Assembly (NCBI GenBank): GCA_050485365.1
Contig: JBJHBH010000003.1
Location: forward strand, 4,127 to 68,126
From: Desulfuromonadales bacterium
GTDB taxonomy: Bacteria > Desulfobacterota > Desulfuromonadia > Desulfuromonadales > JACZKF01
DNA length: 64,000 nt
Direction of reading: 5' to 3'
In this document: piece by piece, positions 12,905 through 30,046 of the stretch
Layout of the letters: the number at the start of each line of letters is the position of its first letter
Numbering within the stretch: the first letter of the stretch is position 1
Notes under the pieces: model-generated
What the model was told of the DNA's origin: nothing
What the model saw: the letters and a program-made list of their open reading frames with translations, nothing else
The model's database searches: none
Made by a program: the position numbers and the translations under genes

Positions 12905-12945
12905 AAAGAATCCATTACTGAAGGCAAAGATTTCCCTTTTTCCTA

Positions 12946-14406: not shown

Positions 14407-14418
14407 ACTCCTTAAAAA

Positions 14419-15510: not shown

Positions 15511-15611
15511 TCCGAGACCCTTAAAGCGAGGACGGAGGACAGAGGACGGAAGACAGCAAGACCTGCATCCACGAGTCCAAGTTCCACACAGCAAAACAAC
15601 GGACAACTTGC

Positions 15612-15667: not shown

Positions 15668-16555
15668 TCAACGGCTGAAGACCTCTACCCGTCCGTTCCC
15701 CTCATCGACCACGCAGAGCCGCCCCCATGGATCGAAGCGGATCTGCCGGGGGAAGTGGAGCTGTCCCCTTGCATGACCGGGGCCGAGAAAGCGGTAGCGG
15801 AAGCCACCGTCCTGGCTGTAGGCCAGGATGCTGCTCTTGTGACGATCGAGGACATAGAGAAAACCGGGACCGACGGCGAGGGAAACAGGAAAGTCGACCT
15901 GCTCGCCCAAGCTGATGTTTCTCGCCACGGTGCCGTCCGAGCGGAAGCGGATGACCCTCTTCCCCCGGGTCTCCAGCGCCCAGACTTCCCCTTCGGCGAC
16001 GACGAAGTCGCTGAGCCCCGCCGGACTTCGGGGGTCGCCGAAGCGCTGCTCCACCGTCAGGTCGTCTGACAGGCGAAGAACCTGGCCGCTGGCGCGGTCG
16101 AGAACGAACAGCTTATTCCCGTCATGGGCGATGCGGTCTGGGAAGATCTGCCGTCTGCCATCGCGCAGCACGAAAGGCTTCACCTCGCGGGCGGCGAGGT
16201 CGATGCGGGTGATGCTGTTGCGCCCCTTCTCCACCACCCAGAGACGACCGTCATCGAGACGCACCATGTCGAAGGGAGCCTTCAGCCGGTCGTCTGCGGT
16301 AAAGGCCCGAAGCATCTCGCCGTCGCGCCCGAAGGAGACGAGACGGTTTCGGCCCGCGTCGACGGCATAGTAGCGCTCGGCATCCATGTCGAACGCCACC
16401 GCCGCCGGCATGTACATGGCGTTGCCGGGGGTGTCGATCTTCAGGCTCATCTGCCATTGCCAGGGCGACTGGGCCAGGGCAGCGACCGGCAGCAGAGAAA
16501 AGATCGCCGCCAGTAAAAACCACTTCAGAGGTCGTATTGATATGTCATTCCTCAT
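15668..16555 (-). CDS. Secreted NHL-repeat beta-propeller protein
   Basis: Signal peptide MRNDISIRPLKWFLLAAIFSLLPVAALA. Repeated blades include YYAVDAGRNRLVSF, LWVVEKGRNSITRIDL, LFVLDRASGQVLRL, VWALETRGKRVIRF, LYVLDRHKSSILAY and LCVVDEGNGRVEVF. Confidence 0.75.
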   Translation of the reverse strand: MRNDISIRPLKWFLLAAIFSLLPVAALAQSPWQWQMSLKIDTPGNAMYMPAAVAFDMDAERYYAVDAGRNRLVSFGRDGEMLRAFTADDRLKAPFDMVRLDDGRLWVVEKGRNSITRIDLAAREVKPFVLRDGRRQIFPDRIAHDGNKLFVLDRASGQVLRLSDDLTVEQRFGDPRSPAGLSDFVVAEGEVWALETRGKRVIRFRSDGTVARNISLGEQVDFPVSLAVGPGFLYVLDRHKSSILAYSQDGGFRYRFLGPGHARGQLHFPRQIRFDPWGRLCVVDEGNGRVEVFSR

Positions 16556-16581
16556 GCGCTATCCCCATATGTGTTTCGTAG

Positions 16582-16655
16582 GGGCGGACCCCTGTGTCCG
16601 CCCTTTGCGGGAATCTTCTTACGCCGGTGAACAGGGCAGGCACAGGGGCCTGCCC
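16582..16655. repeat. Pair of GC-rich hairpins (REP-like)
   Basis: GGGCGGAC-CCCTGT-GTCCGCCC (16582-16603) and GGGCAGGC-ACAGGG-GCCTGCCC (16634-16655), between the 16-heme gene stop and the NHL gene start. Confidence 0.5.
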
Positions 16656-16693
16656 CTACCAACTCCTAACTCCCAACTTCTGGCTCCTGCTTC

Positions 16694-17881
16694 TCACCGA
16701 TTCCTGTGGCACTGCACGCACAGGTCGCGGGTCCCTCTGAATCTGAGATGGTTCTCGTACTCGGTCCCCTTGCTCGTGTGACAGCTCGCGCAGGTCATCA
16801 TCTGGCCGGTTCGCGGGTCGTAGACCGTCTCTCCGATCGGATGGGTGAACTGCTCGTGAGTCACATGGCAGGTGACGCAGACGCTGTTGATGGGTCCTTT
16901 GGCCATTGCCGGGTGATTGGAGCCGTGCGGCGCATGGCAGTCGCTGCACGAGGTGTGCTCCTCGTGCTTGAAGCGCGCATCCTCCATCCGCCGGAAGGTC
17001 GCATCATGACAGGTGCCGCAGACGTGGCGCTCCTTGCCTTTGAGCAGACTCTTCTTGTCGCCTGCGTGGGGCGAATGGCACGCAATGCAGCCGTTGCTGC
17101 CGAAGCGCACCAGATGATTGTGGGACGATGCCATCTGATCGCCGACCTGTGGATGGCAGGCGAGGCAGGTGTCGACGGTGACCGGCTCGTTCCGTCCACT
17201 GTGACAATCCCTGCAGCCGCCGGCGAAGGGCTCGTGCAGTACGTTGCGTATGAGCCCGGGGCGGTTGCTGCCGTGGGGACTGTGGCACGAGCCGCAGTTG
17301 CCGAGATCGGCGGGAAAGTTCGGGTGTTTCTGCCGCACCGAGGCCGCAGAATGGCAGTTCAGGCAGAGCGACTCCTGATCCCTGACCAGCAGATAGGGGT
17401 TTGACGACTGGTGAACTTCATGGCAGGAGGTGCACTGCCCCCGCGCATATGGCGTATGGGTGTTGCGATACTTTCTCGGCAGATCGCTGTGGCAGTCGAA
17501 GCACGTCTCGGAGAGCCGCTTTCCGAGAAGCCCAGGATGATCCGACGCGTGGGGATCGTGGCAGGAGAGACACTCCCCCCGCCGCACCGGCTGATGGACG
17601 ATCCCCTTGCCGTGCTTCTGCGCCGCGCCGGTATGGCACGAGTAGCACAGGCTTTTCACTTCCTGCTGGAGCAGGCCGGGGTACTTGGCCACATGGGGGC
17701 TGTGGCAGGAGGCACAATCGCCGCGAGAGGCGGGCTGGTGCTTCACCCTCTTCTGAAAGGTGCTTCGCTCATGGCAGGAGAAGCAGTCCACGGCGAGGGC
17801 CGCCCCCTGCGCCGCCAGAAAGAGGACGAGGGTCGAGATCGAAACCAGAGCGAATCGCACGAATCGATGTAATGACATCAT
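16694..17881 (-). CDS. Multiheme c-type cytochrome, 16 CXXCH
   Basis: Signal peptide ..LVLFLAAQGAALA. I counted 16 CXXCH motifs, many as paired CxxCH..CxxCHxPH units. ATGA start/stop overlap with the upstream gene at 17878-17881. Confidence 0.85.
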   Translation of the reverse strand: MMSLHRFVRFALVSISTLVLFLAAQGAALAVDCFSCHERSTFQKRVKHQPASRGDCASCHSPHVAKYPGLLQQEVKSLCYSCHTGAAQKHGKGIVHQPVRRGECLSCHDPHASDHPGLLGKRLSETCFDCHSDLPRKYRNTHTPYARGQCTSCHEVHQSSNPYLLVRDQESLCLNCHSAASVRQKHPNFPADLGNCGSCHSPHGSNRPGLIRNVLHEPFAGGCRDCHSGRNEPVTVDTCLACHPQVGDQMASSHNHLVRFGSNGCIACHSPHAGDKKSLLKGKERHVCGTCHDATFRRMEDARFKHEEHTSCSDCHAPHGSNHPAMAKGPINSVCVTCHVTHEQFTHPIGETVYDPRTGQMMTCASCHTSKGTEYENHLRFRGTRDLCVQCHRNR

Positions 17882-19827
17882 CTCGCCCTCCCTTCATGAC
17901 ACGCGGCGCAGTTGCCGGGGGCAAAGGGCCCGTGGCTCACCGGATAGAGCAGATTCTTCTCCGGCCCGCCGTGGGGGTCGTGGCACGACACGCACATGTC
18001 GGGCGCCGGCTTCATCCCCTGGTGCGCCTTGTCGAAGCGCGACGAGCCCGTGTCGTGACACCCAGCGCAAAGCGAGCCGATGCTCTCCACGGTCAGCGAC
18101 GCGAAATTCGATCCGTGGGCGCCGTGACAGGTGGTGCAGTCTTCGGCCGCCGGGGGGTGCATCGCCCCGTCGCGCCAGTACTTCGCCGTGTCGGCGTGAC
18201 AGCCGAGGCACAGAGCGGGCTGCGCTCTGTTGAGATATCCCGCATGGGGGGAGCCGTGGCTGCTGTGGCAGGCGCTGCACTCCATCTTGGCCACCGGCTC
18301 ATGCTGGAACTTGTAACGACCGACCTCTTGCCGAGTGTCGGAATGACAGGAGAGGCAGAGCCCTCCGGGCTGCGACTTGACGAGTTTGCCGTAATCGGCG
18401 CCGTGAGGTGCGTGGCAGGTCAGGCAGTCGCCGTCGGCAAAGGGCTGATGGGCCGTCTTTTCCTTCATGGCGCTCCCCATCCCCGGGTGGCAGGTAAGGC
18501 AGAGCGCCCCTTTGGCAGCCTGCGTCTTCAGAAGACCGCGGCGATCTCCGCCGTGGGGGGTGTGGCATGAGGAACACTCCCCTCTGCCGAAAGGTCTGTG
18601 CAGACTGAACAAGCCCATTTCACCCTGCGTCTGACGGTGGCAAGAGAAGCAGAGCGTCGATTCCGCCTGCGTCAGCAGCTTGCCTCGGTTCGATTCGTGG
18701 GAGGCGTGGCAGTCGAAACAACGCCCCTCTTTGGCGGGGGGATGCGCCCGCCGCGTATCGGAGTAGGTCCTGCGATCGTGACAGGTGAAGCAAAGCGCAG
18801 GGGTATCGGCCTTGAGAAGGGCCTGGTTTTCGCTCCTGTGTCCGCTGTGGCAGGTCATGCAGTCGCCGTCGCGGACGGGCTGGTGCACGCTGCGCATCCG
18901 GCTCCCAGGCAGGCCGTAGCTGTGGCAGTCGAGGCAGACCCGGTTCGGTGAATCGACCAGCATGGCGGTGTGATCGCTGGCATGCACGGCGTGGCACGAC
19001 GCGCAGTCGCCCTCCATGACCGGCATATGCTGCGCCCGCTGCGGAACATCGAAATGGCAGGTGAGACAGATCCCCCCTTCGGCCTGCTGAACTTTGATGG
19101 CGGAGCCCTCAACCTGATGACAGTCGTTGCAGCTTCCGCTCGCCACGGGGTCGTGAACCACCGCCTTGAGGAGCCCCGCCTGGTTGGAGCTATGATGCGA
19201 GTGGCAGTCTGCGCAGTTGGTCGCAACCGGGTAGTTCTGGTGGGCAGCGCCGAATTGTGCCGAATCGGTCGCATGGCAGGAGGCGCACAGCTCGTCCTTT
19301 CCCATGCTCAACAAGCCCGGATGATCGGACATGTGCGCGTCGTGGCAGGTCGCGCACCCCTGGGCGACGGGCGCGTGAACATTGCGTCGCGCAAATGCCT
19401 CGCGCTCATGGCACGCGAAACAGGCATTGGGGCCATCGGCCGTGAGAAGGTTCTTGAACGGGGAATTGTGCGGTTCATGGCAGGTGCTGCATTTCCCCTT
19501 GTTCACCGGTTCGTGCACCGACTTCTTGCTTCCGGCCTGCCTGAAGTCCGTATGGCAAGGCAGGCAGAGGAAAGGTTGTTCCTGCCGCGTCAGGAGCCCG
19601 CCGACCAGGCCATGGGGGAGATGGCAGGCTTCGCAGTTCCTCTCCCGAACCGGGGCGTGCACAACGCCTTGCTGATAATTCGTCGCCGTATCGACATGAC
19701 ATTCTGCGCAGGTGCGGCGAACCTCCCGGGTCGGTCCCTGGGATGAGGGCGCGCAACTCGCAACCAGCGCCGCGATGCCCAGAACACTCAGGCATCCCAG
19801 CAAAAACCTCATCGATCTTCCTCTCAT
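17878..19827 (-). CDS. Giant multiheme c-type cytochrome, 26 CXXCH, probable lipoprotein
   Basis: I take the start at MRGRSMRFLLGCLSVLGIAALVASC (19827), with lipobox LVASC. I counted 26 CXXCH motifs in about 650 aa. TGATG overlap with the upstream stop at 19825-19829. Confidence 0.85.
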   Translation of the reverse strand: MRGRSMRFLLGCLSVLGIAALVASCAPSSQGPTREVRRTCAECHVDTATNYQQGVVHAPVRERNCEACHLPHGLVGGLLTRQEQPFLCLPCHTDFRQAGSKKSVHEPVNKGKCSTCHEPHNSPFKNLLTADGPNACFACHEREAFARRNVHAPVAQGCATCHDAHMSDHPGLLSMGKDELCASCHATDSAQFGAAHQNYPVATNCADCHSHHSSNQAGLLKAVVHDPVASGSCNDCHQVEGSAIKVQQAEGGICLTCHFDVPQRAQHMPVMEGDCASCHAVHASDHTAMLVDSPNRVCLDCHSYGLPGSRMRSVHQPVRDGDCMTCHSGHRSENQALLKADTPALCFTCHDRRTYSDTRRAHPPAKEGRCFDCHASHESNRGKLLTQAESTLCFSCHRQTQGEMGLFSLHRPFGRGECSSCHTPHGGDRRGLLKTQAAKGALCLTCHPGMGSAMKEKTAHQPFADGDCLTCHAPHGADYGKLVKSQPGGLCLSCHSDTRQEVGRYKFQHEPVAKMECSACHSSHGSPHAGYLNRAQPALCLGCHADTAKYWRDGAMHPPAAEDCTTCHGAHGSNFASLTVESIGSLCAGCHDTGSSRFDKAHQGMKPAPDMCVSCHDPHGGPEKNLLYPVSHGPFAPGNCAACHEGRAR

Positions 19828-21452
19828 CAGACTCCTCCAAGCTCCCTTTTCACAGACTGCCACCTACGATCATGCACCTCGATCTTCGAGCGAGACTTGA
19901 GCAGATCGAGATATTCCCTGCGCTTCTGTTCCGTCTTTTCCTGCACGAGTCGAGAACGGATGGTATTTGAAACACGTGCAAGGGGGAGGGGGGATTCGGG
20001 GGTGCGGGAAAGCAGATGCACGATGACCCGGCTCCCCTGCGCGGTGAAGGGCTGGCTCGTATCCCCCACGGCGAGCCTGTCGATAGCCGCCCGAACGTCG
20101 GGGTCGAGATGGCTGACCGGCACCTCCTCGGGGCGAATGTTCCTGCCGAAGTGTTCTCTGACCGCTGCGGGAAACTCCTTGCGCGTGGCGACATCGGCCC
20201 AGACCCTGTCGATGGGCCCTTGGGTGTCGTCGATGATGTAGAACCTGACCAGCGCCGGCTGAGTGAAGCGGGCGATGTTTTCCTCGTAGTGCCTTTGGAT
20301 CTCTTCTTCGGTGACGTCGATTTCAGCGGCGAAGAGGCGTCTTTCGACGGCACCGGTCAACCGATGACGCACGTTGAACTCGTACTCCCACTTGAAGGGC
20401 TCCTTCTCCTCGTAACGGCGATCGAGCGACTCCCAGTTCGTCAGACTCTGGGCGACGATTCCGTCGACCACCCGGGCCTTCGTTTCCCGGGCCTTCTCTT
20501 CATCGAAGGCCGCGTGGGCGGCGTCGGGGCGTTGCCCCATATCGCGCCGGGCGACCTCGACGAACTCCCGCTCCGTCACATTCTGCCGGTTGGTGGAGAT
20601 CACCACCGCGTCGGTCAAGGCCTCGTCGGGGGCCATCAGATCGATGGCGGCGATGCGCTCTTCGTCGACTTTCACCTCGTATTTGCGGCGAAGATCGGCC
20701 AGAAGCTGCAGCGTCAGGGCATTTTCCTGCTCTTTCCAGAGCTCTCTGCGAATCTGTTGCCGAGTCATGTGGAAGTCCGCCTGGTCCGCTCCCTCCATCG
20801 CCTTCAGATGGTAGAGGAGCAGCCCCCCCTTGTGTTCGCTCGGCTCGACGACATCGCCCACCTTGAGGTTTCGGAAGATCTCCACCCACCCCTCATCGAT
20901 GCCGACGGGGCGCACCCAGTTTTCGTTTCGGGTAACGGGGCCTCCCTCCTCGGGATCGCGGGCGATCAGCGTCTCGACATCCAACGCCCCCGTGCTGAGC
21001 TCCTGCCAGGCCGCCATAGCCTGATCCTCACTGCTGAAATGAAGTCGCTCGATCAGCCACCTGGGGGAATACGCCTTTTCATAGCGGGCCCACAGATCGG
21101 CATCGGTGATCTTGATACGGCCGTCGATGGCGTCCCCCTTGAGCAGCAGCAGGGCTCTCGAGGTCAGAAAGACCCTCGTCTGGCGCTGAAAGCCGGGATC
21201 GGTGTCGAGTTGCATCCGCTCACCTTCCCGGGCCAGAAGGAGCCATTCGATATAGGAATCGGGCCTTTTCGGCACCTCGAGCCCTTCATCGTTCCAGAAT
21301 TTCCACCATCGCTTGAAATCGTCGGTGGTGTATCTCGTCCCGTCGATGGTGACCAGGGTGTCGTCGCTGCTGAACAACCAAGCCGAAACCGGAGAAACCG
21401 AAACCAAGGAGGTGCAGGCCATTAGCATTAGAATCGAGAGGATACGTCGCAT
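19827..21452 (-). CDS. Periplasmic SurA/PpiD-like chaperone (PpiC-type PPIase-like)
   Basis: Signal peptide MRRILSILMLMACTSLVSVSPVSA. The N-terminal layout is SurA-like (VTIDGTRYTTDDFKRWW). Two parvulin-like segments follow: KVGDVVEPSEHKGGLLLYHLK and VGDTSQPFTAQGSRVIVHLL. The family call is by eye only. Confidence 0.5.
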   Translation of the reverse strand: MRRILSILMLMACTSLVSVSPVSAWLFSSDDTLVTIDGTRYTTDDFKRWWKFWNDEGLEVPKRPDSYIEWLLLAREGERMQLDTDPGFQRQTRVFLTSRALLLLKGDAIDGRIKITDADLWARYEKAYSPRWLIERLHFSSEDQAMAAWQELSTGALDVETLIARDPEEGGPVTRNENWVRPVGIDEGWVEIFRNLKVGDVVEPSEHKGGLLLYHLKAMEGADQADFHMTRQQIRRELWKEQENALTLQLLADLRRKYEVKVDEERIAAIDLMAPDEALTDAVVISTNRQNVTEREFVEVARRDMGQRPDAAHAAFDEEKARETKARVVDGIVAQSLTNWESLDRRYEEKEPFKWEYEFNVRHRLTGAVERRLFAAEIDVTEEEIQRHYEENIARFTQPALVRFYIIDDTQGPIDRVWADVATRKEFPAAVREHFGRNIRPEEVPVSHLDPDVRAAIDRLAVGDTSQPFTAQGSRVIVHLLSRTPESPLPLARVSNTIRSRLVQEKTEQKRREYLDLLKSRSKIEVHDRRWQSVKRELGGV

Positions 21453-22153
21453 TGTTTGAGTCCTTGTCTTAACCAGAGGTTGATGATTTCCCGGGCAACC
21501 TGTTGATTGAGGCCGGTAACGGTATGGATCGTGCCGAAGTGCATTGCTTTTCGATAATCGGTCCCTTGCCGCTGATGGTATGTGCTCCAGAGGACATCGC
21601 CGCTGCCGGCGTCGCGGATCTGAATGTTCAAGGCGAGAACCGGGTTGACGCTGCCATGCTCGCCGGGGTTCTCTCGCGTCTCGATGACATTGCCGGTGAT
21701 CAGCAGCTGGGCGCCGAGGCGCCCCCCCAGCAGCTTCAACTGCTCGGGGTTGAGGGACGTCCCCGGCAAAAGCCGCAGGTGCTGGTACACCTTCAGAACA
21801 TCTCCTTCCTGGGCCAGGTGATAGTTCCCCGCCCCGGCGAATTCGGTCAGAAAGACCTTGTAAGCGATACTGTCAGCGAGAGGAAAATCCGCTTCATTCA
21901 CAAACGGCAGCACTGCAACGCGGCATATGGAGCCTTCAGGCAAAGGAGCTATTTTCGTGTGATACGGGAAGGAGCCCTGCTTCGCCGCACAGCCCGAGAA
22001 AGCAAAAGCGAGAATCAGAAGGAGAAGAGAGTGGAGCAGTTTTGAATTGAAAGCGCTCACGCCCTGAACCTCGTGCCTTTGGCCTGGTGCCTCAAGCCTT
22101 TCTCCCGGCCCCTTGTTCCCGTCCCCTGGAGACTGCCAGTTGTCAAAACTCAT
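21428..22153 (-). CDS. Lipoprotein with an LpoB/DUF799 (GNA1162)/PelC-like fold signature
   Basis: Lipobox AFSGC. Motifs are RVAVLPFVNE, LGAQLLITGNV and ALNIQIRDAGSGDVLW. The start is uncertain: ATG 22153 overlaps the upstream gene by 11 nt, and GTG 22059 is an alternative. Confidence 0.5.
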   Translation of the reverse strand: MSFDNWQSPGDGNKGPGERLEAPGQRHEVQGVSAFNSKLLHSLLLLILAFAFSGCAAKQGSFPYHTKIAPLPEGSICRVAVLPFVNEADFPLADSIAYKVFLTEFAGAGNYHLAQEGDVLKVYQHLRLLPGTSLNPEQLKLLGGRLGAQLLITGNVIETRENPGEHGSVNPVLALNIQIRDAGSGDVLWSTYHQRQGTDYRKAMHFGTIHTVTGLNQQVAREIINLWLRQGLKQCDVSSRF

Positions 22154-23654
22154 CGACCCACATTTCCGATAGCGGTGCGGCTGGTTCTTCCTTTTTGATC
22201 TGGACTTCCCTTTTGCCGAACTGCCGGAAGAGATCGTCTACCTCTCTGCGCGTCCTGTTGCCGAGGACATCCTGCACCATGAGAAATCCCTGAATCTGGT
22301 CATTCTCCTCACCGGTCGGCACCTCGAAGCCGACCTGAGCGGGCAATTCGTTCCCCTCGGCCATCTTCAGAATGCGCCCCTCCCTCGTCCACATCTCCAT
22401 CCGCCAGTATTCGAGGGGAACCCTGCCGTCGTGGGCGAACTCGACGGTCATCTCCCTGTCGTTTTTCTCGACGGCGAGCTCCACCTGCGGCGCTCTGCGG
22501 TTCAGCTCCACCTTCCGGGTAGCCTTGGCCGAGTTTCCGGCTTCGTCCCAGATTTCGAGGACCACCTCGTATTCCCCGTTCACGACCGGGATGTCGGTAT
22601 TGCCGCGCCCCGACCAGATGAGGGCTTCGGGCAGATTGCCGCCCCCGGCGTCGATCCCCACGACCTCTCCGCGATCGTTCAGAAAAGAGAGACGCCAGCG
22701 CGCGATCGGCTTTCGAACGAGCAGACGGGGCTGGATGATCAGATCCCTTCGGAAAACCGGGACATCCCCTTCGATGCTCGCCCCCTTCAGATCGATTTCG
22801 AAGAGCGGAGGGGTCCCGTCGACGACGTAGGAGCCGAGGAGCGCCGTTTCATTGCGGCCGTACAGAGGCCATTCGAGAAAGAGAGAGACCGGGAACCGTC
22901 CGTCCTTCTCCCCCGCGATCCAGGAGGACTCGAAGGTCAGCCCGTCATCGCTCACCGATGCGGCGTGGATCTGGTCGTCCGATTTGAAGAAGACCCGGGG
23001 GGGGCGCCCTGAAGGCCAGCCGTTTCGAAGCCGGACGCGGGCCGTAAATTCCGCCCCGGGGCGAAGGTGGCTCGGGTGCAGCACGATGGAGTCGATACTT
23101 ATGGTCGCTGCGCGCTGCATCTCGTTGATGATCTCCCAAGGCCACTTCGAAACGAGGTCATCAAGAAGAAAGGGGTGCAGATCGGCCACCGAAGACGGCT
23201 CGCCGATGCCGAGAACCCTGCGACCGTCAGAGGCGCTGAAATGTCCGACATACGTCCAGACGGTGCGGGCATCGGTGGTGCGGACCAGTTGCAGGGTCAA
23301 ACCCATGGACGGCGTCGGCCGCTCCTTCATCTGACTTACGGTTCCCAGCAGCACGAACGGGGCTCCCAACTCTTCCCTGACACGGGATATGTGATACGTC
23401 TCCAGATGGCCGACGGTGCGGATGCGGTTGTGGACCATGAAGGCGATGACCGTCTCCTGACTCTCGATCTCGTTGCCGGCCGTTCTCAAACGTTCGGCAA
23501 GGATCCGGGTAAAGGGGAGATTCACCTCGTTTCTCCCCCTGGTGAGCTCCTGCAGCGGAAAGACGGCTATGGACGGAGGAGCCGCAGCAGCAGCGACGGC
23601 CGGAAATAGAACGCAAAGAATGACGAGTCCGATCTTGGTCATTTTATTGAGCAC
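22143..23654 (-). CDS. Secreted protein: LpoB/DUF799-like N-terminal domain plus Ig-like (FlgD-Ig type) C-terminal domains
   Basis: Signal peptide ..FPAVAAAAA. The N-terminal domain has IAVFPLQEL, LGAPFVLLGTV and GLTLQLVRTTDARTVW. The C-terminal part has ALIWSGRGNTDIPVVNGEYEVVLEIWDEAGNSAKAT, typical of FlgD-Ig-like folds. Confidence 0.45.
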   Translation of the reverse strand: MLNKMTKIGLVILCVLFPAVAAAAAPPSIAVFPLQELTRGRNEVNLPFTRILAERLRTAGNEIESQETVIAFMVHNRIRTVGHLETYHISRVREELGAPFVLLGTVSQMKERPTPSMGLTLQLVRTTDARTVWTYVGHFSASDGRRVLGIGEPSSVADLHPFLLDDLVSKWPWEIINEMQRAATISIDSIVLHPSHLRPGAEFTARVRLRNGWPSGRPPRVFFKSDDQIHAASVSDDGLTFESSWIAGEKDGRFPVSLFLEWPLYGRNETALLGSYVVDGTPPLFEIDLKGASIEGDVPVFRRDLIIQPRLLVRKPIARWRLSFLNDRGEVVGIDAGGGNLPEALIWSGRGNTDIPVVNGEYEVVLEIWDEAGNSAKATRKVELNRRAPQVELAVEKNDREMTVEFAHDGRVPLEYWRMEMWTREGRILKMAEGNELPAQVGFEVPTGEENDQIQGFLMVQDVLGNRTRREVDDLFRQFGKREVQIKKEEPAAPLSEMWVDEF

Positions 23655-23708
23655 GCGCTCTCAACCCCTTTAACCCCTCAGCCTCAGATCCACTGTAAGT
23701 TTTTCCGC

Positions 23709-23810
23709 AATGCATCCCCTCCCTTTGGAAAGAGGGGGAAGGGGGGGGATTTCTTGCGAGCAACCTCAGGCAAATCCCCCTAATCCCCCTTTGTTAAAGG
23801 GAGACTTGGC
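23709..23810. mobile_element. MITE-like GC-rich hairpin element flanked by a 9-bp direct repeat
   Basis: TTTTTCCGC occurs at 23700-23708 and 23811-23819 and brackets 102 nt. The enclosed sequence contains the hairpins CCCCTC..GAGGGG and CCCTTT-GTT-AAAGGG. The ends are partly inverted (CTCCCTTT / AAAGGGAG). Confidence 0.45.
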
Positions 23811-23825
23811 TTTTTCCGCGAAGCG

Positions 23826-24425
23826 TCATCTGATCGTCGCCAGCATTCTGCTCACGAGAGTCAGTGTGACCTCGAAGGAGTTCTTCGGCGTCGTCCCGAA
23901 GAGCCGGTCCATCAGCGAGTAGCCGCTCCCCCGCCCGCTCGACTGCCACAGGACCATCCCCGTCTCGGTGTCGACGAGACGCAACGTCAGGGAGATTTCG
24001 GGGTAGACGGCCCCCCCGGTGCGGGCGCCCGCCTCCTGCTCGACGGAGCCGAGGATGAAGGCCTGGGTTCCGAGGCGCTGCCCCAGACGGCGCATGGTCG
24101 GTCCGTCCATGGGCGCACCCGCCTCGATCGCTTCGGCCCGCAGCGTGCTGTCGACCCGCCCCTTGTCCACCACGTCGAACAGGCCCGATGCGAGGAGTTG
24201 GGTCATGGTGATCTCGCGGGTGCGCTGAGCGGCGCCGGCCCCGCCGCCGAGGTTCTCGAAGGGGAGAACGGCCACCGTCTGGATGTAGGAGAGATTGACT
24301 TCATCCCGCATGAAAGACTTAGTCTGATTGCGCCCGCTGCATGCGGAAAGAGAAATCGACAAGAAGACGAAAATCAGCAGGAGTGCGACAATTTTCTTCT
24401 GTTTCATCTCGTAGAAGTCCTTCAT
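23826..24425 (-). CDS. Lipoprotein with an LpoB/DUF799 (GNA1162)/PelC-like fold signature
   Basis: Lipobox LSLSAC. Motifs are TVAVLPFENLGG, LGTQAFILGSV and SLTLRLVDTETGMVLW. These are the same three blocks seen in 21428-22153 and in the N-terminus of 22143-23654. Confidence 0.55.
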   Translation of the reverse strand: MKDFYEMKQKKIVALLLIFVFLSISLSACSGRNQTKSFMRDEVNLSYIQTVAVLPFENLGGGAGAAQRTREITMTQLLASGLFDVVDKGRVDSTLRAEAIEAGAPMDGPTMRRLGQRLGTQAFILGSVEQEAGARTGGAVYPEISLTLRLVDTETGMVLWQSSGRGSGYSLMDRLFGTTPKNSFEVTLTLVSRMLATIR

Positions 24426-24514
24426 GAAATTGGCTGGAATAAATGTACAGAAACTAATTTTTTAATGCAAGAGAATTTTTTAAGAAAGTAACATTAATCT
24501 TCTAGCACCTTCCG

Positions 24515-24562
24515 CCTCGCCTCTCCCCGAGGGAGAGGGTGCCTAAAGGGCGAGTGAGGGGG
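24515..24562. repeat. Copy, in inverted orientation, of the CCTTCGG..CCCTCTCC-NNN-GGAGAGGG double-hairpin repeat
   Basis: CCTCGCCTCTCCCCGAGGGAGAGGGTGCCTAAAGGGCGAGTGAGGGGG is the near reverse complement of the 49727-49774 copy. Confidence 0.5.
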
Positions 24563-24577
24563 TATTGGCTTTTGCCC

Positions 24578-26683
24578 CTAAAGCCTCATCGCCAAAGAAA
24601 CCTGGAAGTTATAACTGTTCATCTCGGCGAGCGTGTAGTTGACCCGGCTCTGCATGGAGAAGGTCTGGCTGATGGACCAACTTCCATCGAGTCCGAAGCG
24701 GTTGGAGGTTTCTCGCCCCTGCGTGTGGCTGTATCGGAAATTCGCCCTCGTCTTGTGGGTGCGCAGCAATACCATGCTCATGTTGAAGGCGAGCGTATCC
24801 GGGGTGTCGGGCCCCGTCCAGCGGCGGGTGCCGGTCAGACGCATGGAGAGGAGATCCGACGGGCGATACCCGAAGCTCAGCGTCGAGTCTGAGCTCGAGT
24901 CCGTGGCGGTATCGGTCTCGGTCTGCCGGTAATTCGTCGCCAGATCCGCCGTCAGTTTGGGGTTGATGCGGGCGTTGAAGTTGATTCGGCTGCTGAAGGT
25001 GTCGATGTCGACGGCCTCACCGTCGTCGCGAAACCGGGTGCTCGTCACGTAGGACGCATTGAGCGAGGCGGTGAGGTCCGGATAGATGCGCGCCGTGGAG
25101 AAGAGGCTGTAGGTGTCGCTGGTGGCGGTTTTCTGCTCTCCGACGAAGCGCTCGGACTTTGTGGCGCCGACGGTGACGTTTAGGGTCGGCAGGGGAAAGG
25201 TCGCCACGATCAGAGAATACGAGCGGGCGAGCGTCTCCGGCGCGCCGGTCGAATTCAGGCGGGTTTCGCTGTACCCGAGCGAGGGCGAGACCGCTCGGTG
25301 GGGCGCCCATCGAAGGCCGCCGCTCAGAGAGCGGCGGGTCGATTCGGTGCTCAAATCGCCGGACGTGCTGTCCGACCTCTCGTACGTCACGCTGGAGGAG
25401 GCCGCCAGCGTTCGGGTGAGTTGAAGACGCATATTGGCCGTGGTGAGATGGCTCGTCCGGCGGCTCCCACCGTCGGCGTCGGTAAAAAAACTGATGACCT
25501 CCAGTTCGGTGACGTGCAGGGGGACACCGGAGTCGTTCGTCACCACGACCTTGACTTCCCGCGCGAAACGGCCCACGGGGACTTCGAACCGGCTTCGCTG
25601 CTCGTCGTACAGCGCAGGGAGATCCTCCGCCGCCAGTTCCCACGAATCGTCGAGAATACTGCGGGTGTAAAGGTTCCATCGGAGGGCTTCGACCTGAGCG
25701 GGGGCCAGAGGCGCGAAGGGGTCGTGATAGAGGAGGAATGCATCGATCTGTTCGCTCAAATCGAAGCGGATGCCGACATGCCCCCTTTCGAGAGGCTGAA
25801 TAGAGAGGGCCCTGCCGAACTCCCCTTCCCGATCGTTGTTCTGCAGAAGGGGATTGATCGTCAGCTGCACGAGCGCGGGGTCGGGCTCCTGCGTCGGATC
25901 GGAGGTCGCCGACGATGGCTCCCCCAAATCGAGCCGCCGCCGGAAGACGCCTTCTTCCGGAATCACGGCCGTGAAGTCCGATTCCGAATACTGAAACTGC
26001 TGCGAGAGTCGTACGCTGAGGCGGTTTCGCCAGAAGTTGCCGCCGGTTTCGGCCCGCACGAAGTGAGAATCCGACTCGCTTCGGCTCAGCTCGATTCTGT
26101 CTTCGCTTTCGTTGTGGCTGTAGGCGTAGAAGAATTGGGCCGCCAGCAGGTCCCAGTCGAAACCGAAGCCGTAGCGTGACGAGTGCGTGTCGAGGGTGTC
26201 GGAATCGCGGCTCGTCTCGACCGCTTCGCCGTAACTGAGCCAAAGGTTGGGCCAGAAGATGCGCTCCCAGTTGCTCCCCAAAGAAGCGTCCCACGAATAG
26301 GAAGTGAGACCCGGCCCCGACGAGCTGCGGGTCTCCGAGGCGGTGCCGAGAAGCCCCGCCCGGAAGATGTCGTTTGTCAGATTGAGATTGGCGGAAGGGA
26401 CGATCTGCTCGGACGATCTCCATCCGGTGCCGGATTCGCTTTGGGTCCGGGTGTAGCTGAGATTGAAGCCCGCCGAAATGGCATGGGTCGGCTGCCACGT
26501 TACCCCGGTGCCTGCGCCGAGACTGTAACGCTGCTGAAATGAGCGCCGCGTCTCGATGTTGTCCCCTCCCGACTCCCGATACTGCCAGAAGGCGCCGAAG
26601 TCGACGGCGAAGGCGGGAGCGGCGCCCCAGACAAAAAAAACCAGCAACAGGAGAGACAGTCTTTTGCCGACAAATAAAAGCAT
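24578..26683 (-). CDS. Outer-membrane beta-barrel protein (~700 aa) with a central non-barrel insert
   Basis: I take the start at MLLFVGKRLSLLLLVFFVWGAAPAFA (26683). Both ends show alternating hydrophobic/polar strands rich in Y/F/W, S/T and R/D, for example RYGFGFDWDLLAAQFFYAYSH and NFRYSHTQGRETSNRFGLDGSWSI. Residues ~270-400 (..HVTELEVISF) look like a jelly-roll/discoidin-type insert. Confidence 0.55.
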   Translation of the reverse strand: MLLFVGKRLSLLLLVFFVWGAAPAFAVDFGAFWQYRESGGDNIETRRSFQQRYSLGAGTGVTWQPTHAISAGFNLSYTRTQSESGTGWRSSEQIVPSANLNLTNDIFRAGLLGTASETRSSSGPGLTSYSWDASLGSNWERIFWPNLWLSYGEAVETSRDSDTLDTHSSRYGFGFDWDLLAAQFFYAYSHNESEDRIELSRSESDSHFVRAETGGNFWRNRLSVRLSQQFQYSESDFTAVIPEEGVFRRRLDLGEPSSATSDPTQEPDPALVQLTINPLLQNNDREGEFGRALSIQPLERGHVGIRFDLSEQIDAFLLYHDPFAPLAPAQVEALRWNLYTRSILDDSWELAAEDLPALYDEQRSRFEVPVGRFAREVKVVVTNDSGVPLHVTELEVISFFTDADGGSRRTSHLTTANMRLQLTRTLAASSSVTYERSDSTSGDLSTESTRRSLSGGLRWAPHRAVSPSLGYSETRLNSTGAPETLARSYSLIVATFPLPTLNVTVGATKSERFVGEQKTATSDTYSLFSTARIYPDLTASLNASYVTSTRFRDDGEAVDIDTFSSRINFNARINPKLTADLATNYRQTETDTATDSSSDSTLSFGYRPSDLLSMRLTGTRRWTGPDTPDTLAFNMSMVLLRTHKTRANFRYSHTQGRETSNRFGLDGSWSISQTFSMQSRVNYTLAEMNSYNFQVSLAMRL

Positions 26684-26810
26684 TGGCAACCGCTGATCTC
26701 CCGTAGCTGAAAACCGATCCAACCCCCAACCAAAGATTAATACAATTATATTAACTTATACTTAATTTCTCCGCAAGCCTTTTTGCACTTCCTTCCGAAG
26801 AAATGAAATT

Positions 26811-26839
26811 CGGCAGTCTACGCAGGTTGCAGACTGCCG
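26811..26839 (-). terminator. Terminator-like hairpin downstream of the second tandem OmcS-type gene
   Basis: CGGCAGTCT, an 11-nt loop, then AGACTGCCG. On the minus strand it is followed by AAUUUCAUUUCUU. Confidence 0.5.
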
Positions 26840-27008
26840 ATAAAAATCCAAAGCGACCCCCCCGACCCTGCGGCCCCCCCCTGTGAAACAGGAGGGGCAA
26901 AGCAAGGCAATGTCCCCCCTATGCAATAGGGGGGAAGGCCTACGCGGCCAGGGGGGTCAGATTTCGCCTTCAGCCTTTCGCCTTTTACCCATCGCCTCGC
27001 GCCTGCCC

Positions 27009-28343
27009 TTAAGGCATCGCCCCGCCCTTCGCCGCATGGCACGCAAGGCACCCTTCGCCGGCATGGGTCTGGTTGCCGGTGCCGGCGCGCATGCCGCTCG
27101 TCAGGGCGGCGTAGTCGAAGCGCAGCAGCCCGTCATAAGGGGCGGCGTGGGCCATGTGGCAGGAGAGACACATGACCATGTCGCGCCCGGGAACCACGTC
27201 GGCGCTCGCGGTCATTCCGGCGTTGAAGAAGTCGCTCGGACGGGCGACGGGGGCGGTGATGGAGTATTCGGTGTAGGCGGCGTACTCGCCGAGGTCCGGG
27301 ATGACGTAGTCCGAAGGGTGACGCAGAAAGGCGCCGCTCGTCCCGTTGGTGTCGCCCGAAGAGTGGAAGGTGCCGTGGCAGGTGATGCAGAAGCCGGTCA
27401 TCGTCGCGTTCGGCACATAGAGGCGCGACGTCTGCGACGACGTCCCCAGATGGCACCGGTTGCAGGTGTTGGTCGTGCCGTAGTCGGTGGCCTTGATCAG
27501 GTCGTTGATGTACCCGCCGTGATATTCGTTGTGGCTGCTGCTGTCGACATTTCGCCAGCGGTCCTGCTCGTTGCCGTAGCCTCTCAGCCCCCGGATGAAG
27601 CGGTAGCTGTGGGCGAGGGGGTTGTCGTAAAAATTCGGGTGCCCACCGGGGCCGCCGTCGGCCTTGAAGCCGTCGTAATTGTCGTGATGAGCGCCGCGAA
27701 AGTAGGTGACACTCGACGCGGTGGGGCCGTCGTATCCGCTGAAGGCGGAGAGGCCGGTGCGGTAGGTCGGCGGCGCGCCGGTAAAGGGGTCCCCTTCGTC
27801 GAGTTGCTGGCCGCGGATGCCGTGGCACCCCATGCTGCCGGCGCAGGTGAATTTGCCGACGTCGAAGGTGAAGCCACTCGCCTCGTGGGGCCTGAAGCCG
27901 GGGGGGTTGTTCAGGACATCGTCCCTCGGGACGAGATCGACGACGTTGTGCCCCTTGCGGCTACCCGGCTCCCCCTGCCCTTCCTTGGTGCCGGAGATGT
28001 AGGCGAAGTTGCCGCCCGCCAGGTCGTCGTCGAAGTTGTGATAGACCTGCGGCACCCTGCTTCCGCCAGCCATCTGCCAGACCGAGTCGTCGGCGAGGGG
28101 GCTCGCGTGGCAGGCGATGCAGTCGTAGCGCAGCAGGTTGCGGTTCGTCTCCCCCGTGACGGTAGTGCTGCGCCCCTGCAGCGCCACCGGCCTCCCTTCT
28201 TCGCTGTTGTGCATGGTATGGCAGTCGGCGCACTGGCCGACAAGACCGGCCCCGGCTGCCGTCGCGACGAGGCCGAAGAGCCACACACCCGTAAGGGCAC
28301 CGATGAGGGACATAATGCGGGACTTCTTCAATTCATGCTCCAT
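27009..28343 (-). CDS. OmcS-family multiheme cytochrome (downstream gene of the tandem pair)
   Basis: Motifs are GQCADCHTMHNSEEGRPVA, CIACH, VPQVYH, DLAGGNFAYISG, SRKGHNVVD, CAGSMGCH (CX5CH), CNRCH, CITCHGTFHSS, FLRHPSDYVIPD, MCLSCHMAHAAPYDGLLRF and CLACHAAKG. The start is uncertain: MEHELKK at 28343 or MSLIGAL at 28313. The track start 28409 has no RBS. Confidence 0.8.
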   Translation of the reverse strand: MEHELKKSRIMSLIGALTGVWLFGLVATAAGAGLVGQCADCHTMHNSEEGRPVALQGRSTTVTGETNRNLLRYDCIACHASPLADDSVWQMAGGSRVPQVYHNFDDDLAGGNFAYISGTKEGQGEPGSRKGHNVVDLVPRDDVLNNPPGFRPHEASGFTFDVGKFTCAGSMGCHGIRGQQLDEGDPFTGAPPTYRTGLSAFSGYDGPTASSVTYFRGAHHDNYDGFKADGGPGGHPNFYDNPLAHSYRFIRGLRGYGNEQDRWRNVDSSSHNEYHGGYINDLIKATDYGTTNTCNRCHLGTSSQTSRLYVPNATMTGFCITCHGTFHSSGDTNGTSGAFLRHPSDYVIPDLGEYAAYTEYSITAPVARPSDFFNAGMTASADVVPGRDMVMCLSCHMAHAAPYDGLLRFDYAALTSGMRAGTGNQTHAGEGCLACHAAKGGAMP

Positions 28344-28418
28344 ACCGTATGAGAAACGATCATTCACATTTGGATGTTCAACCTGTGAGAATGCCTGATG
28401 CGCTCCCATTTAAAGTAG

Positions 28419-28452
28419 GCCGGTACCCGAAGCGCACTTCGGGTACCGGCCG
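28419..28452 (-). terminator. Perfect 15-bp hairpin between the two tandem OmcS-type genes (attenuator, stabiliser or partial terminator)
   Basis: GGCCGGTACCCGAAG-CGCA-CTTCGGGTACCGGCC, 35 nt after the stop at 28487. On the minus strand it is followed only by a weak U-tract (UACUUUAAAU). Confidence 0.55.
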
Positions 28453-28486
28453 GATGTTCATGTCAATTCAAACCTGGCAGCCTCAT

Positions 28487-29773
28487 TTAATTCTTGGGCA
28501 CCCCTTTGGTGGTATGGCAGGCGAGGCAGCCGGAGACGCCTTCGGTGTTGCCGGCGACCATGTCGGCATAATTGAAGCGCAGCATGCCGTCATGGGGGGT
28601 TGCGTGGGCAGCGTGGCACGAAAGACACATGACCATGTCGGTGCCGGGACGAACGACGCTGGCCGCGGGGAGGTCGCTCAAGTCGGGACGGGCGACCGGC
28701 GCCGTGATGTCGTACACGGTGTACGCGGCATACTCGCTGGCGTCAGGAATGACGTAGTCGGAGGGGTGGCGCAGGAAGGCGCCGCTCACGCCGTTGTTCC
28801 CGCCGTCGCCCGAGGAGTGGAAGTTGCCGTGGCAGGTGGCGCAGAAGTTGCTCATCGACTGGTTGGCGATCTTCAGGGTCGAGTCGAGGGTCATGCGGGC
28901 GCTGATGCCACTGGTGTCACTGCCGGGCACATGGCAGCTGTTGCAGCTCGCAATCCGGAACTCCGAGTCGGCGCCGAAGTACTCGTTGTGGCTGGTGCTG
29001 TCGACGTTCTGCCAGCGGGCCTCGGTGTTGCCGATCCCCTTGAGGCCGGCGATGAAGCGATAGCTGTCAGCGATATACTGCCCGTCATGGACACCGGCGG
29101 TGATCTGCTCGGGATCCTTGAGGCCGTCGTAGTTTTGGTGGTGCGCGCCGCTGACGGCGGGGATGCCTCTGCGCTTGACAGTGATGTTTTGACCCTCATT
29201 ATCTGGGTCCGGAACAGAGCTCAGCAACTGCGAACGGGTGCCGTGACAGCCGGCGGCGCCGGCGCAGGTGAAGTTGGCGAACTGCAGGCCCATGTAGTTG
29301 GCATGGGTATTGCCCATGGCTGCACCCGTTTCGGGATCGACATAGCCCCCGCGGAAGTCGCCGGGGGGAACGGTGAGACCGCCGAAGTCGGGGTCGCCCG
29401 CGCCGAAGATGTCGACGACGTTGTGCCCCTTGCGGTTCCCTTCCAGAATGTGCATGAAGTTACCTGCGGCGAGGTCAGTCGTGCCGCTGTGATAGACCTG
29501 GGGGACCTTGCTGCCGCCCTCGAGGGTGACGATGTGCTCGCTTCCCCCCTGAGCGTGGCAGGAGATGCAGTCCATCCGCAGCAGGTTCTGGACGGGTGCT
29601 ACTGAGGTGTCGCTGGATGCCGTCTCCGAGTTCCAGACCTGTGCGACGGGGCGCCCTTCTTCGCTGTTGTGCATGGTGTGGCAGTCGGCGCATTGGCCGA
29701 TGAGGCCCTGAGCACTGGCCATTGCCGGCAAGGCGAAAAGGCCTAGGGCGGCGATTGCAATCATTTTCTTCAT
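28487..29773 (-). CDS. OmcS-family multiheme cytochrome (first gene of the tandem pair)
   Basis: Start MKKMIAIAALGLFALPAMASA, with GGAGG 8 nt upstream. Motifs are CADCHTMHNSEEGRPVA, CISCH, CAGAAGCH (CX5CH), CNSCH, CATCHGNFHSS, FLRHPSDYVIPD, MCLSCHAAHATPHDGMLRF and CLACHTTKG. Confidence 0.85.
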   Translation of the reverse strand: MKKMIAIAALGLFALPAMASAQGLIGQCADCHTMHNSEEGRPVAQVWNSETASSDTSVAPVQNLLRMDCISCHAQGGSEHIVTLEGGSKVPQVYHSGTTDLAAGNFMHILEGNRKGHNVVDIFGAGDPDFGGLTVPPGDFRGGYVDPETGAAMGNTHANYMGLQFANFTCAGAAGCHGTRSQLLSSVPDPDNEGQNITVKRRGIPAVSGAHHQNYDGLKDPEQITAGVHDGQYIADSYRFIAGLKGIGNTEARWQNVDSTSHNEYFGADSEFRIASCNSCHVPGSDTSGISARMTLDSTLKIANQSMSNFCATCHGNFHSSGDGGNNGVSGAFLRHPSDYVIPDASEYAAYTVYDITAPVARPDLSDLPAASVVRPGTDMVMCLSCHAAHATPHDGMLRFNYADMVAGNTEGVSGCLACHTTKGVPKN

Positions 29774-30017
29774 TTCGACTTCCTCCATTCATTTCCATTT
29801 GGTTGTGGCAGCTCAAAAACCCTCCTCCATTTTCCCACCTGATACATGGGCCGGCACTCCCGACGATCCGGGAGGGGAGAACCCGGTCAAGCCTCCTTCT
29901 TTTCTTTCGTCTCTACTCACCTCCTTTCCGGCGTTTTTTGCCTTAGCGATACCTGCCGACACATTGCAGCAATCCGTATCCCCCCAGAAATGAAGTGTGC
30001 ATTTGCGCAGCGTCCTA

Positions 30018-30046
30018 ATTATTAGCAATTCATTATTTATTGTCAA
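30018..30046 (-). promoter_or_regulatory. Candidate sigma70 promoter of the tandem OmcS-type operon
   Basis: On the minus strand, TTGACA (30046..30041), a 17-nt spacer, then AATAAT (30023..30018), inside a very AT-rich stretch. This implies a 5' UTR of about 235 nt. Confidence 0.45.

Follow-up and report, generated by a model that had tools for sequence, protein, structure and literature searches.

The 64,000-nt stretch analysed here (the window; all coordinates are window positions) comes from contig JBJHBH010000003.1 of a Desulfuromonadales bacterium and carries, between 21428 and 26683, a block of four minus-strand genes. They encode a large outer-membrane beta-barrel, a small lipoprotein (lipoA), a periplasmic protein of 503 residues and a second small lipoprotein (lipoB). 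An earlier note, made from the sequence alone, had proposed that this block exports or assembles OmcS-type cytochromes, and the analysis supports the proposal: the block is likely to be the secretion and assembly core of an osc-type (omcS-companion) cluster, corresponding to OscE, OscF and a split OscG of Geobacter sulfurreducens, for which such a role has already been published.

Organisation of the locus

All four open reading frames (ORFs) lie at the coordinates first proposed for them, and for the barrel a start at 26683 fits the 701-residue copy in the databases. The limits of one ORF are doubtful: the 241-residue frame of lipoB (21428-22153) is probably over-called, because its homologues measure 190-213 residues and translation from a GTG at 22060, preceded at 8 nt by GAGG, would yield an ordinary lipoprotein signal peptide. 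Throughout the 12.9-31.7 kb region of the window all real genes run on the minus strand, several of them with overlaps of 4-37 nt, in keeping with an operon; the peptidyl-prolyl isomerase (PPIase) gene, for instance, starts 25 nt before lipoB ends. The neighbours are those that the earlier note had named, namely a PPIase downstream (Rotamase_2, about 1e-21) and two tandem hexahaem cytochromes upstream (Table 1). These tandem cytochromes (27009-29788) are presumed to be the cargo or the filament subunits. In the OmcS-like cytochrome gene downstream of the block, the 5′ end of the ORF is probably over-called.

Table 1. Features of the osc-type cluster in the window, with the G. sulfurreducens Osc protein compared with each (model length in residues)
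Feature	Position	Strand	Description	Osc protein compared
5-haem cytochrome with OmpL47-type beta domains	30337-31713	minus	458 aa; 5 CXXCH, then OmpL47-type beta-barrel/Ig-like domains; NCBIfam NF047446 2e-19; upstream of the tandem OmcS-type genes	
Two tandem hexahaem OmcS-type cytochromes	28487-29788 and 27009-28409	minus	6 CXXCH each	
Terminator-like hairpin	26810-26840	minus	between last OmcS-type gene and barrel gene; 12-bp stem and T-rich tail	
Outer-membrane beta-barrel, OscE-like	24578-26683	minus	701 aa; ORF extends to 26722	OscE, 701 (~50 long strands)
Beta-rich insert of barrel	25484-25966	minus	residues ~240-400 (~160 residues), between strands 11 and 12	
lipoA, PelC/LpoB/GNA1162-like lipoprotein, OscF-like	23826-24425	minus	199 aa with signal peptide; lipobox LSAC	OscF, 169
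503-aa periplasmic protein	22143-23654	minus	type I signal peptide; PelC/LpoB-like N-domain and three Ig/FN3-like domains	OscG, 367 (together with lipoB)
lipoB, PelC-like lipoprotein	21428-22060 (ORF up to 22153)	minus	~210 aa from GTG 22060; lipobox FSGC; conserved Cys pair	OscG, 367 (together with 503-aa protein)
Parvulin-type PPIase/chaperone, OscH-like	19827-21452	minus	541 aa; Pfam Rotamase_2 1.1e-21	OscH, 548
26-haem cytochrome, OscI-like	17878-19863	minus	661 aa; 26 CXXCH; Paired_CXXCH_1 5.8e-140	OscI, 627 (26 haems)
16-haem cytochrome, OscJ-like	16694-17881	minus	395 aa; 16 CXXCH	OscJ, 372 (16 haems)
NHL-repeat beta-propeller protein, OscK-like	15668-16555	minus	295 aa; Pfam NHL 9e-11	OscK, 260 (all-beta)
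OmcS-like multihaem cytochrome, GSU2501/OscC-like position	14419-15606	minus	395 aa; 7 CXXCH in ORF as called	OscC, 414
YVTN/lactonase-type beta-propeller lipoprotein, OscD-like	12946-14406	minus	486 aa; lipobox LVGC; NCBIfam beta-propeller repeat 2.4e-11; PQQ_ABC_repeats 1.7e-24	OscD, 473

Three paralogous domains of the PelC/GNA1162/LpoB superfamily

Three short sequence blocks had been reported as common to lipoA, lipoB and the N-terminal domain of the 503-residue protein. In the alignment, the first two are present in all three proteins, reading VAVLPF, VAVLPF and IAVFPL for block 1 and LGAQLLITGNV, LGTQAFILGSV and LGAPFVLLGTV for block 2. Block 3 is complete in both small proteins (LNIQIRDAGSGDVLW, LTLRLVDTETGMVLW), but the 503-residue protein follows it only loosely, with neither the D nor the G (LTLQLVRTTDARTVW). 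The profile-profile check proposed in the earlier note relates the three proteins to one another. Run on alignments of each family drawn from syntenic loci, hhalign matches lipoA to lipoB with a probability of 99.6% (E 3.2e-24), and the N-domain of the 503-residue protein to lipoA and to lipoB with 96.9% each (E 2e-10 and 1.5e-10). In the controls, set against reversed alignments and against families of this cluster that are unrelated, the probability stays at or below 15% (P >=0.002). These scores, with their clean controls, indicate that the three domains are true paralogues.

The fold originally suggested for these proteins, that of LpoB, DUF799 (GNA1162), PelC and CsgG, is borne out by Pfam and by profile matches to solved PelC and GNA1162. 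LipoA passes the Pfam models LpoB (29.1 bits against a cut-off of 22.3; 1.1e-6) and CsgG (24.9 against 20.8; 1.4e-5), with TolB_N and GNA1162-like scores just under the Pfam cut-offs, and within its family LpoB is matched by 11/11 members and GNA1162-like by 6/11. Searched against solved structures, the lipoA family profile finds PelC (9H80 at 3.6e-6, 5T11 at 4e-6, 5T10 at 6e-6) and GNA1162 (4HRV, 7.4e-6). The lipoB family profile matches PelC 9H80 nearly end to end at 5.7e-6 and the middle domain of Vibrio FlgT at 1e-3; Pfam FlgT_M is matched by 4 family members. Direct profile matches of the 503-residue N-domain are weak (PelC 0.066, LpoB 0.13), so that this domain is placed in the PelC/LpoB fold only through its paralogues. 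On the strength of these comparisons, the three domains are assigned to the PelC/GNA1162/LpoB superfamily and not to LpoB itself. Solved relatives such as PelC, FlgT and CsgG form rings under or in the outer membrane, and the PelC entries hold 12 identical chains each, consistent with the dodecameric ring of PelC.

Membership in LpoB proper was rejected, as the broad Pfam domain model passes only for lipoA and the NCBIfam LpoB equivalog TIGR02722 gives 30.1 and 17.5 bits, far below its cut-off of 110.55. These scores also bear on the possibility that the block is an envelope-maintenance set, made of LpoB-type regulators of peptidoglycan synthases and an unrelated porin, with no specific link to cytochromes. 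LpoB is indeed the best Pfam name for the lipoproteins, and LpoB structures are among the weak PDB matches of the 503-residue N-domain (E 0.13-0.5). However, PelC and GNA1162 outscore LpoB in PDB searches, no penicillin-binding protein gene lies nearby, and the block is in strict synteny with OmcS-like genes in about 11 loci, which together with the equivalog scores makes such a set extremely improbable.

CsgG proper was likewise rejected: only positions 36-151 of the 210 in the profile are matched, the barrel is a separate protein and csg genes are absent. A related possibility is that the block, in the manner of Pel or curli systems, exports a non-cytochrome polymer such as an exopolysaccharide or an amyloid, for example to build the conductive matrix, and merely co-occurs with cytochrome genes. 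PelC and GNA1162 are the closest solved relatives of the lipoproteins, lipoA passes Pfam CsgG, and some 15 kb downstream there are genes for an oligosaccharyltransferase of STT3/PglB type and for a sulfatase/GDPD protein, which would suit a polymer exporter; yet the conserved block contains no gene for a glycosyltransferase, a PelB-type TPR-porin, CsgA/B/E/F or a polymerase, its conserved neighbours are all cytochromes, PPIases or beta-propellers, and LpoB scores fall far short of family-level membership (30 vs 110 bits). Export of such a polymer is therefore considered very unlikely.

The lipoboxes of both lipoproteins are conserved, that of lipoA in 11 homologues, and the 503-residue protein has a type I signal peptide. 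In the lipoB family two cysteines are near-invariant, namely that in CRVAVLPF and another close to the C-terminus (...QC.V...), which suggests a conserved disulfide that lipoA does not have.

A predicted large outer-membrane barrel with an inserted domain

The protein of about 700 residues, first described as a large barrel, is modelled as one. Its AlphaFold 2 (AF2) model, built from 10 sequences, has a mean pLDDT of 80.9 and a pTM of 0.58, and DSSP finds 11 long strands (27-238), a beta-rich insert and 17 long strands (404-700), giving a predicted barrel of ~28 transmembrane strands behind a signal peptide (AFA|VD). By standard barrel geometry, for 28 strands and a shear number of about 30 (a=3.3 Å, b=4.4 Å), the backbone diameter would be ~50 Å and the free lumen, if unplugged, ~40 Å, roughly as wide as an OmcS protomer or filament. 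The insert begins after an odd-numbered strand (11), carries the conserved motif RFE.P...R..KVV...TELE and could be a plug or a cap; it has no Pfam match even at E 10. The barrel sequence as a whole has no match in Pfam (E up to 0.1), NCBIfam or the PDB, nor does the barrel profile match any PDB sequence. With the model, Foldseek returns only generic large barrels at TM-scores of 0.26-0.41, namely TonB-dependent transporters, the PapC usher (E 1.3e-7, TM 0.28/0.38) and MtrB.

The 503-residue protein

The AF2 model of the 503-residue protein (96 sequences, pLDDT 86.5) divides, with DSSP, into an N-terminal alpha/beta domain (residues 28-180, nt 23115-23573), three immunoglobulin (Ig)/FN3-like beta-sandwiches (187-278, 285-384 and 391-473; nt 22236-23096), a disordered tail of ~20 residues and a C-terminal WVDEF (nt 22146-22160). 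W499 and F503 are invariant across the 96 homologues, and this terminus looks like a docking peptide. Foldseek on the whole model retrieves only tandem Ig/FN3 proteins, which is uninformative for the N-domain.

More than 100 homologues were found at 29-66% identity, under names such as 'TolB-like' (JGI) and 'FlgO domain-containing' (UniRef). An exhaustive search of representatives gave 8863 matches, a figure inflated by Ig-repeat proteins, in which only full-length matches of ~480-540 residues are meaningful; among the best 150, the family comprises at least ~80 full-length clusters at 50% identity. Its members come from Desulfuromonadales, Desulfuromusa, Pelovirga terrestris, Desulfurivibrio alkaliphilus, Desulfobulbaceae and other Thermodesulfobacteriota, and Geobacter is not among the names of the 20 homologues that were looked up. 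The protein may serve as a marker gene for spotting producers of OmcS-type nanowires in metagenomes.

Conservation across related loci

Eleven related loci are long enough for gene order to be read (L002, L003, L006, L008, L009, L010, L011, L012, L013, L015/L016 and L020). The order barrel, lipoA, 503-residue protein, lipoB, PPIase, 26-haem cytochrome, 16-haem cytochrome, NHL protein, OmcS-like cytochrome and propeller is kept in all ~11 of them, even where identity drops to 24-31%, and the four-gene form of the block is found in the window and in all its close relatives. OmcS-like genes adjoin the barrel gene wherever upstream DNA is present (L008-L013, L015 and L020), in divergent orientation in L015, and an OmcS-like cytochrome follows the NHL gene in all the long loci. 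The co-occurrence with OmcS-family genes that the earlier note proposed to check is thus observed, every locus of sufficient length keeping the block beside OmcS-like hexahaem genes. The search for related loci, made with an 11-sequence alignment, found no Geobacter genome, and a search for homologues with a 112-residue OmcS fragment taken from a PDB alignment found short proteins only and no full-length OmcS.

Probable correspondence to the osc cluster of Geobacter sulfurreducens

In its account of the osc operon, PMC13194489 credits to Shen et al. 2025 (Cell Chem Biol 32:239) the roles of OscH in folding, of OscE, OscF and OscG in secretion and of OscD in morphology, and lists OscI and OscJ as periplasmic. 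According to PMC12977616, an eight-gene block, GSU2500-2493, always accompanies a GSU2501-like hexahaem cytochrome. GSU2495 (OscI) is a protein of ~70 kDa with 26 haems, and the OmcS secretion pathway is described in this literature as porin-like. The same set of parts, adjoining OmcS-family genes, is present in the window: two hexahaem genes lie directly upstream of the block and one downstream, and counterparts of OscH, OscI, OscJ, OscK, OscC and OscD are recognised by domain type, haem count and length (Table 1). The lengths of the Osc models were taken from the supplement of PMC13194489 (strain LT for the haems of OscJ), from which only lengths and haem counts were used. In supplementary figure S3 of that paper, OscE is given 75.7% helix and 1% sheet, which contradicts its own ~50 strands averaging ~10 residues; the helix and sheet labels of that figure appear to be swapped or unreliable.

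The two arrangements differ in several respects. Four genes separate the cytochromes from the PPIase in the window, whereas G. sulfurreducens has three (E, F and G; GSU2499-2497), because a single OscG of 367 residues stands against the 503-residue protein and a separate lipoprotein; this split is a difference of packaging and not a loss of parts. The 503-residue protein adds three Ig-like domains and the conserved WVDEF C-terminus. The order of the block is also rotated, the equivalents of OscC and OscD coming after that of OscK, and no equivalents of OscA or OscB were identified within the window block. Moreover, the OmcS-type proteins of the window are remote from OmcS itself (E 9e-7).

A metagenomic contig bridges the two arrangements. 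Contig_36652 of ENA ERZ25039527 (L017) has the gene order of Geobacter and reads NHL, OmcS, propeller, barrel, 189-residue lipoprotein, ~365-residue protein, PPIase and multihaem cytochrome, and the N-terminus of its OmcS homologue matches 6EF8 at E 1.2e-29, much closer than the window cytochromes do. Gene callers split the barrel and OscG-like genes of this contig into fragments, the former (12963-15179) having two compensating frameshifts and the latter (15751-16885) one; these are most likely long-read assembly errors and were corrected by eye before comparison. Hidden Markov models (HMMs) of the window families match the 189-residue lipoprotein (lipoA, 6e-31), the PPIase (8e-27) and the propeller (5e-14). 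They also match the ~365-residue protein twice, the first half with the N-domain of the 503-residue family (4e-9) and the second half with lipoB (2e-17). The window barrel HMM did not detect the L017 barrel in hmmsearch, whereas hhalign aligns the barrel family with the reconstructed protein end to end, insert included (95.8% probability, E 7e-9, 663 columns).

The second half of the ~365-residue protein has no signal peptide of its own, which supports a single two-domain protein. From these matches OscG is inferred to consist of two PelC-like domains in tandem, and the 503-residue protein and lipoB of the window together to be a split OscG equivalent with three Ig-like domains in addition. 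On this reading, the feature conserved between systems would be a set of three PelC-like domains. The two-domain protein of L017 lacks the WVDEF motif.

A probable secretion and assembly core for OmcS-type filaments

The likely identity of the block as the OscE, OscF and split OscG core is argued from the synteny, the paralogy and fold of the three domains, the match in lengths and haem counts, the bridging contig and the literature on OscE, OscF and OscG. Several points weigh against it. The window cytochromes are only distant relatives of OmcS, as the product of 28487-29788 matches OmcS in the PDB (6EF8) at E 9e-7 and that of 27009-28409 has no PDB match at 1e-3. Gene order, protein lengths, numbers of haems, types of domain and a single frameshifted metagenomic contig are the grounds for the equation with OscE, OscF and OscG. 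The secretion mechanism itself is still called speculative in a 2025 review (PMC12307469). The barrel ends in ...SLAMRL instead of the usual aromatic last residue, and its best TM-score in Foldseek is that of MtrB (6R2Q_B, 0.41/0.44, 7% identity).

This last match suits an alternative in which the block is a porin-cytochrome conduit or anchor: the barrel would form a sheath around the cytochrome with 26 or that with 16 haems, or around the filament base, as in MtrB/MtrA or in OmbB with OmaB/OmcB, and carry electrons, and the PelC-like proteins would stabilise it. The ~28 predicted strands belong to the size class of MtrB, whose barrel has 26, the 26- and 16-haem cytochromes are invariably found within the same block, and the 26-haem protein carries a possible lipobox, VASC. 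However, a TM-score of 0.41 at 7% identity reflects little beyond barrel size, and TonB-dependent transporters and the PapC usher outrank MtrB by E-value. Membership of the MtrB/PioB family was rejected, Pfam MtrB_PioB giving no match. The barrel gene adjoins the OmcS-type genes, with four genes between it and those of the 26- and 16-haem cytochromes, and the Mtr and Pcc (porin-cytochrome conduit) clusters, which also combine a very large barrel with multihaem cytochromes, have no PelC-like lipoproteins and no PPIase. The literature account, finally, assigns OscE, OscF and OscG to secretion and OscI and OscJ to the periplasm (PMC13194489). A conduit is thus rather unlikely as the function of the block, and the conduit and export roles are not mutually exclusive.

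For the secretion and assembly core, these elements can be joined in a tentative sequence of events. The hexahaem OmcS-type subunits (27009-29788 and possibly 14419-15606) would be exported by Sec and loaded with haem in the periplasm, a step for which a ResB gene is present in the window. The OscH-like parvulin-type chaperone would then fold or hold the subunits, in keeping with the published role of OscH. The barrel, predicted by modelling, would provide the passage through the outer membrane. At its periplasmic mouth the homologous domains of lipoA, lipoB and the 503-residue protein would assemble into a ring or collar like that of PelC beneath PelB. Ring formation, its stoichiometry and export by the block itself are inferred. 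The three Ig-like domains might reach into the periplasm and hand over subunits, and together with the WVDEF tail they may engage the subunits or the chaperone. Folded subunits would finally pass or mount through the barrel and polymerise at or beyond it, giving a surface filament, as suggested by the literature.

Several known systems offer partial parallels. In PelB-PelC, small outer-membrane lipoproteins of the same fold are likewise encoded beside an outer-membrane barrel (PelC 5T11, 5T10, 5T0Z and 9H80). Unlike that system, the cargo would here be a folded haem protein and not a polysaccharide, three paralogous subunits replace the single PelC, and the ~28-strand barrel has no TPR domain; the PelB porin is smaller and carries one. 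No pel biosynthesis genes or PelB TPR-porin were found in the block or among its conserved neighbours. In curli secretion (CsgG/CsgE/CsgF), a lipoprotein of related fold takes part in the export of subunits that polymerise outside the cell, with no ATP at the outer membrane; CsgG is itself the channel, whereas the window has a separate 701-residue barrel and no CsgE, CsgF, CsgA or CsgB genes. FlgT, FlgO and FlgP of the Vibrio flagellar H-ring, which form rings under the outer membrane, are of a related fold class; the matches to them are weak and the context of the window is not flagellar.

Chaperone-usher pili (PapC/FimD, PapD), an analogy that is raised in bioRxiv 10.1101/2025.10.22.684050, share a large barrel with an inserted beta-domain, a periplasmic partner with Ig-like domains and a terminator-like hairpin after the subunit gene. 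They differ in that structural agreement with the usher amounts to TM 0.28/0.38, that no usher or PapD Pfam matches were obtained, and that the subunits here would be globular haem proteins linked through haem-His contacts in place of donor-strand exchange.

It is conceivable, and proposed here only as a possibility, that the Osc-type machine forms a class of its own among outer-membrane assembly systems, one that handles filament subunits already folded and loaded with their cofactor. Such a class would combine a ~28-strand barrel holding an internal beta-domain with a periplasmic hetero-oligomeric collar of three PelC-like paralogues (three chains here, one single-domain and one double-domain chain in Geobacter). 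The Ig domains and WVDEF tail may be a built-in arm for subunit delivery, taking the part of the chaperone in chaperone-usher pili.

The novelty that the earlier note had implied is not borne out, as the question of export has already been taken up in the osc literature; the system and its proposed role are published, and no new question is opened here. What is new is the relationship to PelC and GNA1162 with its three-fold paralogy, the four-gene packaging with an Ig-bearing subunit across several lineages of Thermodesulfobacteriota, and the size class and insert of the barrel. The osc machinery extends, in strict synteny, to distant relatives among the Desulfuromonadales, Desulfobulbaceae, Desulfurivibrio and other Thermodesulfobacteriota. 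Accounts of the way in which cytochromes loaded with haem get through the outer membrane and build nanowires are still called speculative, and the non-barrel secretion parts, seen as three PelC/GNA1162-fold paralogues that are packaged differently by lineage, provide a structural handle on this process.

Regulatory signals and flanking genes

The terminator-like hairpin between the last tandem cytochrome gene and the barrel gene has a dG of -21.7 kcal/mol (z -4.7), and comparable hairpins occupy the same position in L008 (Pelovirga; 7009-7035) and L009 (6055-6092). It may be an attenuator that sets the ratio of subunits to machinery, and its position recalls the attenuators behind major subunit genes in pilus operons. 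Further upstream, a promoter-like site, TTGACA-17-AATAAT (11/12 matches), is found at 30018-30046, between the 5-haem OmpL47-type gene and the first OmcS-type gene.

Beyond the beta-propeller gene lies a 10-CXXCH cytochrome gene (11741-12994, minus strand) whose position is kept in L002, L003, L008 and L010, followed further on by a 7-CXXCH cytochrome gene (9144-10814, minus strand) with a counterpart inside the block in L015. Because these genes are conserved in relatives, the conserved unit may be longer than the published eight-gene block. On the opposite strand of this cytochrome-rich region is a ResB-like gene for cytochrome c biogenesis (system II; 7577-8968, plus strand; Pfam 4e-89). 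Just past the cytochromes, two minus-strand genes encode an STT3/PglB-like oligosaccharyltransferase of 683 residues (5260-7311; STT3 4e-6, PglB core 6.5e-4) and a sulfatase-GDPD fusion protein of 929 residues (2458-5247), which might have a part in glycosylating or otherwise modifying surface cytochromes.

An aptamer of the c-di-GMP-I (GEMM-I) riboswitch family is located at 2199-2289 on the minus strand (54.5 bits, gathering score 35; E 7e-8), directly upstream of another gene for a hexahaem, OmcS-sized cytochrome (1025-2170). GEMM-I variants that sense cGAMP occur upstream of cytochrome genes in Geobacter.

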